From NCBI GenBank assembly GCA_010405405.1, contig MU004230.1, positions 2,204,627 to 2,268,626 on the forward strand: DNA of 64,000 nucleotides, read 5' to 3'. Below, one piece after another: positions 56,754-64,000 of the stretch. Position numbers and translations under genes: made by a program. The notes beneath the pieces were generated by a model, which was not told the DNA's origin, searched no databases, and saw only the letters and a program-made list of their open reading frames with translations. How positions within the stretch are numbered: the first letter of the stretch is position 1; each line of letters begins with the position of its first letter. Source of the DNA: Microthyrium microscopicum (Eukaryota).

Positions 56754-58016
56754 AAGGCCTGCTTTTATCTGTGCAAACGCTTTCATGATTGATGTAGACT
56801 ATATGAGATAATTCCTAATGTTACACCCATATTATCACAGATTACTCTTCTTCTGGAAGCATTGACAATGCTTCATTGAGCTTATGGGACCACCCGGTTG
56901 TCTTTCTTGGTGTCATCGGCATAAACTCAACCAGGCTGGAATCCGAAGCAAGGGAAAAGTGTTGACTGTGTTGGTTCCACAGAAAAAGCACTGTATCCAG
57001 ATATAATATATATCCGCATAATATGGCAAAGTGCATGTCCACACTGAAGTGGGTAGGGCTTACTTCTAAAACAGCTGCATCAAAAAAGACGAAGTTGAGC
57101 TGTATGAGCCTGCGTTACCAAGAATGGCATTTATTTGGCTGCTCTGTAGCCATACTTAGTGAGATTATCCAGATAATGCTGCCTTTTTATACGAAGTACG
57201 AAGTAGTGTGGGTTGTACGAAGCTGCAGGGACCCAACCCATGCGAAAACCAAACGCCATGTCTCACAATCCCAGCTGAAGATCGAGGCTCATGCATGGCG
57301 CACGTTAGTTTCATGTGGAGATCGGACCCCTGAAGCCAAGATATCAATGTCTATTTAACTACATCCCATCCCCCAGATATTTCCTCTTTTCTAGTTTTTT
57401 TTATCTTTCACTTGAAACTTGATTTGGGTGTCCCAATCTTTGCCAAAGTGTGTTTTTATGTTCCCTTCATCGATTGGGGGGGATATTGTTGCTTGGATGT
57501 TGATACATTTGATGGAAGTCTTCAGTCATATTGATCAAGTTGATGTGAGATTGGTTGACTTGTATGGGTGCGGGAGCATAATGGGACGGGAGCAGACTCA
57601 ACGTTGGGACGGAGTTAAGAGCTTGTAGAGCAAGTTGGGCGGAGTTAATATGAGCCAGTTTGTGGTGGCAGCTTAGCAAAGTGAAGGGCCAAAGCTGTCT
57701 GCTCCACAGGAGAATGGCCAGCTGTGCCATGGAGGGGCTAAATTTTTTTGGGCTACTTCATGAAAGAATTAGTGAGAGATCACTAATATTTAGCGACAAA
57801 TTGCCATCTGTTGGCGAGCAGTCCTAAAATTTCATAGCCTGCTGAACCTCCCAACTCTGTCAAGGAGATGATTGGCAATGCAAAAATGACTTCAAGCTTT
57901 CTTCGGAATTTCTAAAGTCATTACCTGAAGCACAACCGTATGGTAAAGTGCGGAAGGAATTGATCTGTGGGCAATAGCTCTTAGTTAAGCCTGTATATAC
58001 AGATTTGGAAGGCTAT

Positions 58017-58250
58017 TTGAAGTCAGTGATCCGCTTTCGGCGGGATCTGATGAATAAGAACCTTCTTCTTGATTTAAGGCAACTTGAAGTCAGTGATCCG
58101 CTTTCGGCGGGATCTGATGAATAAGAACCTTCTTCTTGATTTAAGGCAACTTGAAGTCAGTGATCCGCTTTCGGCGGGATCTGATGAATAAGAACCTTCT
58201 TCTTGATTTAAGGCAACTTGAAGTCAGTGATCCGCTTTCGGCGGGATCTG
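58017..58250 (+). repeat. Perfect 67-bp tandem repeat, 3.5 copies
   Basis: Unit TTGAAGTCAGTGATCCGCTTTCGGCGGGATCTGATGAATAAGAACCTTCTTCTTGATTTAAGGCAAC starts at 58017, 58084, 58151 and 58218. Confidence 0.97.
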
Positions 58251-59510
58251 TAGAATGAACGCCCTCTTGTTTAATTGTACATGTCTGCAACCTTTGGTCT
58301 TCCCGAGGACTTGGAGCGCGGAAAGTGATTGAGAGAGTTTTATGGATTATGAATTATTTACTACGTTCCAGTGGAGCTTCGGAGTAACTGAACTATAAGT
58401 ATCATATTCATATGACTGAGTCCTGAAAGATGACTTTGCAATGTCAATACGAGGCGCGAGTCAGTGTTGGCTTGAGATGTGCGATACCAGCACTGAGGTG
58501 AATCGGTGCTTGCTGGAGCTTGCAATACTGAAACCAGAATAACCACCATAGAGAGAAAACATGTGATTCTGGACCAAGACTTGGGCAATCTTGAGTGTAT
58601 TTGCATATAATAATGAATTATCTTTCAAAGATAGAAGAGCATCTGAGCGAACTAAATAACTGCAGTAAATCAGAACTGATTTGCAGTTCTCCCATGTGGA
58701 TAACAGAGGTTGTTCTTGGGTTCCCGAGAGTCACCTGCTTCACGCGGGTGGCTCTCGGGGGTGTGAGGCAAGCCTCCAATTTCTAGATCCAGGATACATT
58801 GCGTTTAAGTGAATTATTCTCTAGAAATATCCGCGTAGGGGGTATGCAAACATTACTTTCAAAGTTCTGTTCTCCCTGATGGCCAAGTCGACGGTTTCCA
58901 TTGTGGTGTGGAAGTCTGAGCTTGCTCACAAAGCTGAAATACCTGACCGGCAAACGTATTGTAGAGTACTTACTAGAGTACTTATCATTTCTCGGGCCTC
59001 AAAACCTGTTACGTCCCTGCCTCTCTTGCCAAGTTGAGCGGAATGGTTCCGGAGAATCTTCGTATTGCTTTCAGATATGTTTAGTTCTCAGCAAAGCCTC
59101 AAGTCATCTTGAGGTGAGTTCTTAGACGGTACTTTGGTAAATGTTAGCGTTACAGATTCTCAAGAAGTTCAAGCGTACTGTCTAGTGGTTTCTTGAGCCA
59201 CTTTTCAGAATTGGGGTTTAAAAACCTGCTGCGTACTTGTTCATCTTTAAAGATACCTGAACGGCTGTTTGTATTCTCAGTCGGGATGCTATCTTAACAA
59301 CTATAACCCCGCTGGTGTTGACATGTCGCAAAGAACATAAGTTAAAGTGCCCTGCCTTTCTGGGAGCCACTCGCTTGATGCCTTTTCTACCATTTTTTGG
59401 TATGTGACATGTTGGCGTAGGCCGGCGTGCGTGGACTCGTGGGTGTGAGGAGCAAGAGAGAGTGGAATCGTGGAAATCGTTTTGGAGGGAGGAGTTGATA
59501 ATATGGGTGG

Positions 59511-59692
59511 TGCCATTCGACTCGCAAACGGACGGACGGACGGATCCCTTCCCCCCAACTGATGGGTAAGCGAAGGGATGTGCCACTCGACTCGCAAACG
59601 GACGGACGGACGGATCCCTTCCCCCCAACTGACCATCTCGAGGAATTGGCGGCCCGAGATGCTCTCCTTCAGTGTTGGGTAAGCGAAGGGAT
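59511..59692 (+). repeat. Direct duplication of a GGAC-repeat + stem-loop unit
   Basis: TGCCA(T/C)TCGACTCGCAAACGGACGGACGGACGGATCCCTTCCCCCCAACTGA at 59511 and 59581, each followed by TGGGTAAGCGAAGGGAT. Confidence 0.92.
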
Positions 59693-60547
59693 ATGGGTTG
59701 CGCCTTTGACGACAGAAAACGCATATGGGTTGCACCAATCTACTCAGATTTCCAACACCCATACGGACGACGACGGGCCTTGAGCTGTCAACGGGAGCGA
59801 GACTAACCAAAACGACACGGACGGACGGATGACGGGCCTCGAGCTGTCATACAGGGGCGACTACATGCCATGAGCATTCAGAACAGAACATCAGCATTTG
59901 GACCAGTCGACGGGCAGGGCTCCTTTTTGGACCCGTAAGACCCCGACTGTTTACTCGGTTTACTGGGTGGCAGTCGGGGAAAACCGCAGACTTGAGCTAG
60001 TGATTTTGCAAAAGCTGGAAATCATTAGCAAGAGGAGAAAAGCATGAGTCTCCCAATAATGAGTGACAGGATGGAAACAGCAGAACTGTAAAATCAATTA
60101 TCAGTGTGAATATTCTTATGGAGCAGAGCCACCAAGATGGACTCAAATTAACTTTCATCGAACGAAGAGAACATTCGCAAGCTTGAGCTGGGAACGACCG
60201 GGAGTTGTGCAGTTTTGAAAAGTATCAGATTCACATCTGATATGCTTTGAAACAGTACAATGACCTAGGCATGTCGTTAAACTGCCACTCGGACGGACAA
60301 AGCTGAAAAGGCCTTGGTAGCGCTGCTCACTTCACAGAGGGGGGCAGAATGATTGACGCCTTGGAAGCTTTTCCATGAGGAAAGAGGGTGGAAAATTTAC
60401 TATTGAGATAGATAGTGCTACCGACCTCACAGAGGGAAGTGGAATGATCGACTCTAGTATATCCATGCCTAGCCTTGGAGTGCCTCAATGGCCTTTCCGA
60501 ACTTGGACGGCAACTCTTTGCCGGATGAAAAGTTGAATCTCCAAGGT

Positions 60548-61400
60548 CGCCTGGGCATGTAGTTCTGCTATATGCCCAGGCGGGAAGAAGAGGGAGCAGA
60601 GAAGTAGTGCCGTGGGAGTTGGGGCTGGGAAATTCAGTGTTTGCGGAATGTATCTTGCTTTGGCTAGATAGAGAGCTATGCCCAAACACAATGAATTTCC
60701 CATCAAGCCAAATATATTCTCTATCTAGTCAAAGCAAAACCATTGTAAGACTTCGGAGTTGTAAGCAACTCGTAATTTGTAATCTGTAACTCGTAACTCG
60801 TAAAATATTTTTTTGAAAGCAAAGAACCGCTTCCGACCTAGTCGCTGGCCTTGTGCTGGTGCTAGGGCGGGTAATGGCAGAATCGTCTTGAATAAGGCAA
60901 TCTGACGCAAGAACTGAGGACTGAAGGCACAAACCAAAAAAACACGGACTTGAAGCGGACCTGGGTATGTCGTTGGCAAACTGCCCCTCGTGAGCGATGA
61001 GTTCACGAGTACTGCTAATTTGTAGGCGAATCGGGAGCGGGACTAACCTACAGGTCGAACGGGAGCGGGACTAACCCACAGCTCGGCCGGCCGAGGGTAC
61101 CTGAGCATGTCCCCATATAAGAAAGTAACTGCTCGTAGGGAAGTGTGATGAGGAAAGGAAGGCTCGGGGAATTCGGTTTGCAGATGTATCCATGCTTTGG
61201 CTGGATAGAGAGTAAAAGTCTCAAACATAACGAATTTCCCGTATAATGCCTTCTATAGTGCGAAAAATCTCTCTATCCAGTCAAAGCATAACTGTAAATT
61301 TGCCTAAGCTATTCTCAATACTTTAAGAAAATAAATAAAATAAAACCTAGTCATTTCCGATTTATCTATTGGCCTTGCGCTGGTGTTAGAACGGGGAGAA
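60548..61400 (+). repeat. Two diverged copies (~60550-60880 and ~61100-61400) of a structured module
   Basis: Shared ordered blocks CCTG(G/A)GCATGT, GGG(A/G)AATTC, TGCTTTGGCT(A/G)GATAGAGAG, GAATTTCCC, CTCTATC(T/C)AGTCAAAGCA, ACCTAGTC and TGGCCTTG(T/C)GCTGGTG. Confidence 0.88.
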
Positions 61401-62544
61401 CAATTGGTTTCTCAACGAGTTTCTCTTGGCAGAAACTGATTTCTCAGATTTTATCGAGAGGCGCATGATCAAGAGTTGTTAAAGTTTGTGGAACAGACCA
61501 TGAGTAGATGTTGAAAATATTCAACGAGAGGATTGTGAAGCATGGTGGTGAACACGGCATTGTATAGAGAGTCCTGTATTGTATAGAGAGTCCGAACATA
61601 CGAAATTTGTTTTTGTTTTACGATTGAACCAGTCTCTCCATACATGGGCTTTTTTTCTACACGGAATTTATCTTCTTAACCTAGAGGATAGCATTTTGTG
61701 CGAGTAGATAGCGAAAAGCTGTCCTAAGTGCGTGGAAGCTTCTGCGGTCCTTCGGTTTTTGTCCAGGCTTGCACATGCATCAAGTTGTGTGGCAGGTTGC
61801 TTGTGCTGCGTTGAATCTATTAGCCTTTAGTGTTAAGCAGGTTGTAAACCTTAGGAGTGGCCGACAAGGTACATTTATTAGTCTGTTATGATTTGATTGC
61901 TATAATACACACAGTATATTAGCAGATGAGCCTTACCAAGTCAGTTTAACTCTGTGGATCTATTAAAAGGAAATGCAGCTTCACAATTGGCTTCTTTGGA
62001 AAGATAATAATCTACAAGGTAACTGTTATTCTCTAAGATAATAAGCCATTATGTTGTACCTTTTGGTTATACCGTTTGGCCAGGTAGCTATAGTCCATGA
62101 CATAGCGTTCGGGGCAGTAGATAAGTCCTCATGAGATCTCTGAAATGACTTTTGAGTAATCTATCTCCACTCTGATTCTCCACAGCTTGGCTCTAATGGT
62201 TGCGTTCGTTGTATTACCTTGTAGACAGTCAAGTTTGCGCATGTGTGCCCTACGGTAAACTCATTGCCGTAGATTTACTTTGTTAATGAAATCGAGCCCC
62301 AGTAACAACTTCTAGTCCGGCAGCTATAAATCGTGCGCAACGTCCGCGGACGAAGCATAGGGCCAGTGCCCAGGCCCCGGAAGTCGATACTAATTACTCT
62401 TAACCGTCAATCTTCAGGCCTTGCCACTGAAATAGCCCATATATATAGGAAAGTAAGGCCTAGAGATCACATAATAGCAGCCGAGCCACTGTTATTATCG
62501 TGAAAGTCCCTTAGTTATCTAAGCACTTTGAAAGAATAATAGCC

Positions 62545-63891
62545 ATGAAGTCTTCAGCCGCCTTCTTACTCCACGCCGCGCTGGCGCTGGCTCATAGTGG
62601 AATTAGTAGAGTCACGGTGGATGGCACAGAGTACGTGCTTATTCTAGAATCTGAACCAGAAAGCATCTAACAACAATGGCAGATATCTCACATGGGATCC
62701 CCGAATCGATTCTTTCCTAGGCGATGTTAAGCGCGTTGGATGGTCATACGACACATTGAAAATTGCAATGCCTAATGTTGGCCCGGTTTCTGGGCCTCTC
62801 TCCGCTAACTTTGCGCCTGTTTCAAACATCGAAAGTCCCGATCTTGCCTGTAAGCTTTCACGATTCGCTGCTGCTAATCGAGTTTGCTAATACTTCAAAG
62901 GTGGAAAAAATGCTAAAGCACCAGCACTGAAGGCTGTTACTCGCGCAGGTGCTCCTGTTAGCGTTAAGTGGTCTAACATCATTGAGATGCACCGTGGACC
63001 AATTATCACTGTAAGTTGTCCCTTTTGAACGGCATACATACTACAGAGACTAAGACACCTTCAGTGGATGGGCCAATACACACCCGGCATGTCGCCAAAC
63101 GAAGTCAAATTCTTCAAGGTAGACGCACCAAGCTATGATGCTAAGACAGGTAAGACATGAATCTCTATCTTTGTGGAAGAAGTTATAACATGAACAGATA
63201 CTTGGGCCAACGAACGGGCAGCCAGGAACAACCAGACCCACACATTCATGATTCCCAGCGATATCAAGCCAGGAGCATATGTTGTAAGAACCGAGTTGCT
63301 TGCACTTCATACCAACTCGCCATCTTTTGCCCTGACCCCTCTTGGAGGACCAGAATTCTATCTTGGCTGCTTCAATGTAGACGTTCAAGGCAGTGGAACT
63401 GCTACTCCCGAAGGTTCAACTTTCCCAGGAGCATACAAGAAAGGAGACAAGGGATTGACGTTCGCCCCATACTACGGTACTGGATCCGGTGTTGAGGTAG
63501 ACAGCAAATACGTAAGCATACGCGCCATAGTGAAAGAAAGTTGTCAATGAGTGAATCTGACTTTTCATAGGTTGTTCCTGGACCAGCCCTTTACGAAGGC
63601 AAGCACGACGCCCCGGCCGGCTCACCACCCGCCGTCAAGGAGACGGGCAAATACGCTCCTGCACTTCAAGCCAAGTATGACGTCCTCAAGACCGATATGG
63701 AACAAAATGGTGGAGCGATCATCAAATTGGTCAACAAGGCATGGCCAGCAAACCAGGAGCTCGCAGAGGCTGGATTGAATTACATCAAGATGCAGTTTTC
63801 CACCGAATGGCGGGATACAATGTCGAAGTATGAGGGTACTAGGAAGGAAGTAGATAACTTTAAGGCAGAGCTTGATAAACAGAAGCAGTAG
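62545..63891 (+). CDS. AA9 (GH61) lytic polysaccharide monooxygenase with a C-terminal extension, 6 exons
   Basis: Signal peptide MKSSAAFLLHAALALA followed by His1 (HSGISRV); SPDLA|CG, HRGPI, FFKV, IPSDIKPGAYVVRTELLALH...PEFYLGC, FPGAY and VVPGPALY; stop at 63891. Confidence 0.92.
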
Positions 63892-64000
63892 ATCAAATGA
63901 TCTCGAGCTTCTTAAACACTATGTACTTGTACTGATCTTAATGAACACCCTTTCATCTGAAGAATGGACATATCGATCATCGTGTTATGACTCAAGGCGG

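Follow-up and report, generated by a model that had tools for sequence, protein, structure and literature searches.

A tandemly duplicated module of crossing inverted repeats upstream of an AA9 gene in an ascomycete: a possible pseudoknot-like RNA element

Introduction

What keeps two crossing inverted repeats paired, in the same order and in tandem copies, within ascomycete DNA that carries no gene? The question is raised by a locus in the window, by which we mean the whole 64-kb stretch of DNA that was analysed, where two modules of this kind lie within a gene-free 5.6-kb interval of an ascomycete genome. The left neighbour of the interval is a histidine acid phosphatase gene, phytase A-like, with its closest clusters from Ascomycota. 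The right neighbour is a gene for an AA9 lytic polysaccharide monooxygenase (formerly GH61; 62545-64000, + strand, start at ~62545), whose product carries an AA9 domain and opens with a signal-peptide-like start, after which comes a His; the gene is intron-containing and extends past the window end; the modules are located 1.3-1.9 kb upstream of this gene.

Conservation of higher-order structure has seldom been documented for fungal long non-coding RNAs (lncRNAs), and in the accessible part of one recent review on the subject (PMC12566771) the words 'pseudoknot' and 'hairpin' occur 0 times each. The module described here is a genuine feature, not a product of chance, that has been conserved between paralogues and is probably transcribed. 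The explanation that we tentatively favour is a lineage-specific structured non-coding element, that is, a pseudoknot-like RNA module under selection for pairing.

Results

Architecture of the module

In both copies, the crossing inverted repeats A, B, A' and B' follow one another in the same order (Table 1). The four arms of each module are disjoint, and helix A and helix B have no nucleotide in common. Sequence inspection and an inverted-repeat search placed the arms of both copies where the original prediction had located them, correct to the base. Helix A measures 16-18 bp and helix B 20-21 bp. The three loops are 11, 7 and 14 nt long in the first copy, compared with 11, 9 and 27 nt in the second. 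The length of loop 1 (11 nt) and the A-to-A' spacing (66 nt) are therefore identical in the two copies. The prediction had also offered a two-state switch; in its classical form such a switch does not fit, since the A and B arms do not overlap and only steric exclusion is possible.

The repeating unit is ~330 nt in size, and the tandem array consists of two good copies and one decayed, possible third copy. The alignment of the copy 1 and copy 2 modules gives 70% identity over 135 columns, and conservation between the copies breaks off at the helix ends. Outside the modules, the copies share only a 26-nt stretch that is 84.6% identical and a short CCTGRGCATGT motif upstream.

Table 1. Coordinates of the module arms, the accessory hairpins and the associated transcript features in the window
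Feature	Position	Strand	Details
Upstream hairpin, copy 1	60548..60582	+	15-nt arms, 5-nt loop, 93% complementary
Helix A, copy 1	60626-60636 with 60692-60702	+	11-bp core; repeat search, alignment
Helix A extension, copy 1	60637-60643 with 60683-60689	+	7 bp; 2-nt bulge before core
Helix A 5' arm, copy 1	60626..60643	+	11-nt core and 7-nt extension
Helix A 3' arm, copy 1	60683..60702	+	Extension, 2-nt bulge, core; within helix B loop
Helix B, copy 1	about 60655-60674/60675 with 60717/60718-60737	+	20 nt, 95% complementary, 43 nt between arms
Downstream island, copy 1	60832..60871	+	15-bp G.U-rich hairpin
Weak upstream-hairpin counterpart, copy 2	61100..61139	+	CCTGAGCA / TGCTC-GT-AGG, by eye
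Helix A, copy 2	61165-61175 with 61231-61241	+	11-bp core; sequence inspection, alignment
Helix A extension, copy 2	61176-61180 with 61222-61226	+	5 bp; GTTTG with CAAAC
Helix A arms, copy 2	5' 61165..61180; 3' 61222..61241	+
Helix B, copy 2	61192-61212 with 61269-61289	+	21 nt, 95% complementary
Downstream island, copy 2	61356..61395	+	Same hairpin as copy 1; 61370-61395 is the 26-nt, 84.6% match
Possible decayed copy 3	61559..61656	+	Weak model match, alignment, direct-repeat list
Joined X5 contig	60343..61183	-	797 nt, 0 other letters; covers 60343-60980 and 61048-61183
Putative intron between copies	60981..61047	-	67 nt, GTTAGT...CAG; X5 joins 60980 to 61048

Pairing is kept between the copies while the loops diverge

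The two-copy alignment contains 39 pairs, and all of its cells (76/76) are paired. Specifically, four pairs are changed on both sides, namely T-A/C-G and A-T/G-C in helix A and A-T/G-C and T-A/A-T in helix B, in accordance with the four compensatory changes that had been claimed, and two further changes are one-sided and of the wobble type. The single G-U that helix B was said to keep is found in both copies as a G.U at position 9. Sliding the 3' partners by 1-3 columns brings pairing down to 28-47%. Column shuffles equalled the two-copy pairing in 32 of 500 cases, a figure that has a floor of about 1/16 when the alignment holds two rows.

The arms are identical at 65 of 76 positions (9 transitions, 2 transversions and 2 gap columns) and the loops at 14 of 34, with 15 further gap columns, a difference with a Fisher p of 5e-6; the linkers have thus diverged in sequence and in length, as predicted, and loops and flanks alike now approach randomness. 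When 11 changes are placed at random in the arms, all pairs are spared in 13 of 200000 trials, or in 728 of 200000 if all changes are transitions.

The module contains the strongest inverted repeats in the 64-kb window, and chance is excluded as their source. Fifteen inverted repeats are listed in the window (at least 14 nt, within 150 nt), among which only four reach at least 90% complementarity, all of them within 60548-61289. According to our own calculation, chance alone would yield ~3.5e-4 instances per 64 kb of a 20-nt arm pair that has one mismatch or none and lies within 100 nt. The B-arm motif has 4 matches in the window versus 0.03 expected; when up to 3 mismatches are allowed, the four arms are still its only matches there, and no complementary target appears. 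A metagenome scan with the 20-nt B arm returned 5 loci, which we take as chance matches since no partner arm was seen within 120 nt on either side at any of the five.

Parallel mutation and template switching as possible sources of matched arms

Three of the four two-sided changes are transition pairs for which the two arms present an identical CpG or CpA context: CpG to TpG/CpA accounts for two of them, one at either end of helix A, and CpA to TpA for the third, in helix B. Because an inverted repeat shows the same context on both strands, context-driven parallel mutation could mimic compensation. The window-wide indices (CpG observed/expected 0.86; TpA/ApT 0.63) give no sign of strong CpG decay or RIP behind the paired transitions, and a local effect could still contribute. 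The claim that both crossing helices are under selection is partly supported, in that the arms are kept far better than the loops; it is weakened in that the comparison set consists of 2-3 paralogues from one ascomycete genome and in that these three same-context transitions could be mimicked by parallel mutation or template switching.

As described in the accessible portions of two reports (PMC8794818, PMC13100816), template switching can create perfect stems and fix the pairing of existing stems, and it homogenises imperfect inverted-repeat arms, often in yeast promoters. The module could accordingly be a DNA-level feature, in which template switching between nearby arms during replication produced the inverted repeats and kept them matched, and in which any action would be that of duplicated cis-regulatory DNA, for example as paired protein-binding sites far upstream of AA9 or as the promoter region of a non-coding transcript. 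We regard this as a substantial minority possibility. In its favour, the element has a gene downstream of it, and A and A' are spaced by exactly 66 bp in either copy. The near-perfect 15-bp hairpin at 60548-60582 is present in copy 1 only, as a recent switch would leave, and both this hairpin and helix A are compatible with single-tract template-switch events. Furthermore, a DNA-level feature has no strand requirement, so that the conflict between strands described below vanishes.

Template switching matches arms within a copy, however, and leaves unexplained that the arms are 85% and the loops 41% identical between copies, so some selection on the arms is still needed. In addition, the G.T at helix B position 9, which we read as ancestral, sits between the covarying positions 1 and 12 and persists as a mismatch in both copies, which argues against a single copied or converted tract as the source of both covarying positions of helix B. 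Typical protein-binding sites span 6-12 bp, and the module departs from them in that its conservation is even across 20-21 nt and stops exactly where the helices stop. The motifs of XlnR/Xyr1 (GGCTAR), CreA and the heat-shock element fail to fit both copies, and the same applies to the Ndt80 motif. The comparison covers paralogues of one genome, and a DNA-level origin by template switching consequently stays among the candidates.

A possible degenerate third copy and the question of a mobile element

A covariance model of helix B, searched over the window, recovered copies 1 and 2 together with a weak match at 61566-61681 (12.7 bits, E 0.38). The possible copy 3 reads ATAGAGAG, then an A'-like stretch, then TCTCTCCATA, with its B-like arms at 61573-61590 and 61634-61648. 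With copy 3 added, 56 of 57 cells of helix B are paired and 5 pairs are changed on both sides, two of them by transversions; this result was matched in 4 of 500 shuffles, with the outer part of the alignment being uncertain. By a hand count on the alignment, helix A keeps 7 of its 11 core pairs in copy 3. Since helix B survives in copy 3 while the helix A core drops to 7/11, helix B seems to be the core of the module.

The 5' arm of copy 3 forms a perfect tandem duplication, in which two 16-nt copies, at 61559-61574 and 61578-61593, are separated by 3 nt. A T7 run lies at 61650-61656, 1 nt past the copy 3 3' arm, and copy 1 has a T7 run at 60804-60810.

A decaying array may also be the relic of a mobile element (a MITE or foldback element) or a decaying local tandem repeat, in either case with no present function, an explanation that we consider very unlikely. 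It agrees with the abundance of small diverged direct repeats in the region 59.5-61.7 kb, with the clear decay of copy 3, and with the length of the inverted repeats, as ~20 bp is typical of MITE ends. The outermost arms of the module (A at its left, B' at its right), however, are not inverted repeats of each other, no target-site duplication surrounds B...B', and the bases flanking B and B' in copy 1 are not direct repeats. The original prediction had named a high-copy MITE, homogenised at the DNA level, as an explanation that would overturn it, and none was seen: only the tandem copies are found within the 64-kb window, and a contig of the DNA run X3 (7729 nt) runs unbroken over 59603-64000 at a single-copy depth of 1025, with neighbours at 966-1041, versus ~2750 near 58020-58208. 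Being based on exact 31-mers, this depth argument excludes only a young family whose members have exact 31-mers in common. Moreover, all copies have one orientation and one common context, and a neutral relic would not hold arms at 85% identity beside loops at 41%.

Several other repeats occur in the same part of the window. The X3 contigs break in 57515-58208, where short pieces reach ~2.7 times the single-copy depth (the ~2750 near 58020-58208), and a contig of run X5 (depth 160) over 57515-58046 carries no Pfam-matching ORF; the segment 57515-58208 is probably a dispersed repeat and is possibly transcribed. A 70-bp tandem repeat (59505-59632; 2 copies, 95-98% identity) carries an ACGG-type microsatellite (ACGGACGGACGGAT), and the motif recurs a third time at 59817-59830. 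Diverged direct repeats (CACAGAGGGRAGTGGAATGA-like) link 60318-60452, which precedes copy 1, with the purine-rich 61137-61151 just before copy 2, from which it follows that the unit boundaries have been reshuffled by insertions.

Accessory hairpins

The upstream hairpin of copy 1 (60548-60582) has a folding energy of -30.9 kcal/mol, with a z of -6.2 on the + strand and -5.5 on the - strand, and its pair probability is 0.92-0.996 on either strand in the fold of the 774-nt contig sequence. The counterpart in copy 2, identified by eye, is limited to GAGCA/TGCTC plus CCT/AGG, and folding this region automatically to a consensus gives a result that is not significant (z -0.13). The original prediction had this hairpin covarying between the copies; the copy 1 hairpin is indeed strong, whereas the claim of covariation is weak, because the copy 2 partner is weak and the consensus fold is not significant.

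The downstream island is a conserved hairpin that is significant on the + strand only. Between the copies it contains one two-sided change, four wobble-type changes and 0 broken pairs, and column shuffles gave a z of -3.96 on the + strand (0/500) and of -1.73 on the - strand (33/500).

Predicted folding of the two helices

When the energies of the separate helices are added up, hairpin-loop costs included, copy 1 comes to -48.1 kcal/mol and copy 2 to -48.7 kcal/mol, while the best nested folds reach -36.4 and -41.0 kcal/mol, respectively. As the helix sums beat the nested optima, a pseudoknot with both helices is favoured unless its penalty exceeds about 8-12 kcal/mol. In nested folding of the 774-nt contig sequence, helix A has a pair probability of 0.001-0.007 and hairpin B one of 0.94-0.98 on either strand, the latter range including the 5' arm of copy 1 helix B (0.94-0.98). 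With no nucleotide common to the two helices and with B prevailing in every nested fold, helix A would be relevant only if it forms alongside B.

In the pseudoknot-like reading that we favour, helices A and B would form together and give an H-type pseudoknot-like fold with long stems, connected by three loops that measure 7-27 nt. By estimate rather than by computation, loops of 11, 7-9 and 14-27 nt look long enough to accommodate both helices.

Transcription, splicing and strand

None of the sequencing runs is on record as RNA, and the RNA-like nature of run X5 is our guess. Its contigs are identical to the window where aligned. The joined X5 contig includes copy 1 in full and, from copy 2, the first arm, and skips 67 nt between the copies, the ends of which are CT..AC on the + strand and hence GT..AG on the - strand (Table 1). 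The DNA run X3 passes straight through 60981..61047, and the joined form is absent from it. Together these observations suggest that a spliced minus-strand non-coding RNA covers copy 1, with the kind of X5 being guessed; alternatively, the joint in X5 could reflect a 67-bp deletion allele. Parts without X5 cover, namely the intron except for its joint, 61520-62021 (including copy 3) and 60212-60342, were left out as evidence, and an adapter fragment found where the X5 contig ends at 60343 was set aside as an unreliable hint of strand or transcript end. Another X5 contig begins at 62405, suggesting a 5' UTR of ~140 nt for the AA9 gene.

The internal non-Watson-Crick pairs are all G.T on the + strand, and thus A.C on the - strand; they are located at helix B position 9 in both copies, at helix A position 5 in copy 2, and at one site in the 60548 hairpin. 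The + strand has a GC skew of +0.146 and folds better in most 120-nt windows of the region, and its G-richness and better folding almost everywhere partly explain this wobble bias. The two strands are therefore in conflict: the structure signals, that is, the G.U pattern and the downstream hairpin, lean plus, whereas the splice junction leans minus. The original prediction had written the module on the + strand; the sole RNA-like strand evidence, the X5 splice junction, indicates the minus strand instead.

A 19-nt motif, AACGGGAGCGRGACTAACC, occurs three times (61015-61076 and 59790-59808), and two of these occurrences fall within a tandem duplication of 28 nt. Read on the + strand, the motif resembles a branch point with a YAG (ACTAACCYACAG); read on the - strand, it gives GTTAGT, the 5' splice site that the X5 joint employs. 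Upstream of the motif, at 60965, the + strand has a perfect GTATGT, and mirror-image intron signals overlap here.

Small-RNA precursors and other known identities

Helix B, with 20-21 near-perfect bp and one central wobble or mismatch, has the size of a miRNA-like duplex, as the original prediction had pointed out. The modules may accordingly be a tandem cluster of milRNA or hairpin-siRNA precursors, in which hairpin B would be cut from the putative spliced non-coding transcript into 20-22-nt RNAs and helix A would merely shape the loop, a reading that we judge quite unlikely. Conserved arms with variable loops and tandem duplication make up the usual pattern of miRNA clusters, and the module has all three, with loops that change freely. 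The duplex is of the right length, hairpin B has its high pair probability on either strand, and an X5 contig, of guessed kind, covers copy 1. Helix B is also the best-kept part of the module, surviving in copy 3 where helix A has lost 4 of its 11 core pairs. However, no lower stem beyond 21 bp is common to both copies, no complementary target is present in the window (the four arms are the only matches with up to 3 mismatches), the miRNA models of Rfam stay at 18-24 bits, below their gathering thresholds of 62-83, and the retention of helix A in copies 1 and 2 is left unexplained.

Searches for other known identities in the window returned none. Rfam gave 0 families at threshold over the whole window, and the best match at E up to 10 had 24.4 bits against a gathering threshold of 72; a tRNA search likewise found none. 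With respect to coding potential, every frame of the 774-nt contig sequence is interrupted by stops, no ATG frame in 59500-62500 is longer than 73 aa, and two small minus-strand ORFs have no Pfam match. By eye, a GUGAUGA precedes copy 2 only and is accompanied by no D box, so a snoRNA was rejected. A CR-I-like motif of RNase P/MRP fits the A arm of copy 1 and not that of copy 2, and has no Rfam support. A CTAACCC that might suggest a telomerase template belongs to the thrice-repeated splice-signal motif. The literature search returned no match for 'interleaved inverted repeats' or for the 20-nt B arm.

Discussion

We infer that pairing in the module is selected in a single-stranded transcript. 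In the pseudoknot-like reading, the module would act as a cis-acting signal for recognition, stability or processing of an upstream non-coding RNA, a guessed role in which helix B would be the core. A bolder form of this reading, which we think unlikely, is a long-stemmed pseudoknot (16-18 bp x 20-21 bp) with accessory hairpins, amplified in tandem as a lncRNA module beside AA9, e.g. as a decay-resistant or protein-capturing fold. If true, the module would represent a structured-RNA class without a described relative.

If both helices form at once, the module would also offer a compact, mutable test case for the origin of such structures by duplication, compensatory change or template switching, and its proximity to AA9 offers a simple phenotype, the expression of the enzyme on cellulose. 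If the module is instead a DNA-level repeat, it would be an example of misleading 'covariation' between paralogues.

H-type pseudoknots serve in viral frameshifting and as exonuclease-resistant elements, and flavivirus 3' UTRs carry some of these as tandem duplicates. The module resembles them in its A-B-A'-B' order, disjoint helices, three connecting loops and tandem duplication. To our knowledge, the stems of known pseudoknots stay under about 10 bp, whereas those of the module measure 16-21 bp and would far exceed them if, as proposed here, both helices form simultaneously. The module also differs in its middle loop of 7-9 nt, with which the stems need not stack, and in its host, a fungal nuclear non-coding region, and it has no sequence or Rfam relation to the viral elements.

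Like MITEs, the module is small (83-130 bp) and has inverted repeats of ~20 bp; unlike them, its repeats are not terminal, no target-site duplication is present, and it is not multi-copy in the window or, at the 31-mer level, in the DNA assembly graph. It shares with milRNA precursors a 20-21-bp near-perfect duplex, tandem paralogues and a site in a putative spliced non-coding transcript, and it departs from them in having no conserved lower stem and in carrying a second crossing helix in the loop.

As far as the accessible parts of the two reports on template-switch inverted repeats go (PMC8794818, PMC13100816), the module is similar to those repeats in being short and closely spaced, in its multi-base 'compensatory' changes and in lying far upstream of a gene. 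It differs from them in that the ancestral mismatch of helix B persists in both copies and in that the arms are also conserved between the copies. Finally, HAX1, according to the accessible part of its description (PMC12566771), is a Trichoderma reesei lncRNA tied to cellulase regulation, for which a role as a protein decoy has been proposed. The putative transcript described here would be, like HAX1, a non-coding RNA of a filamentous ascomycete linked to plant-cell-wall-degrading enzymes, the link in the present case being one of position.
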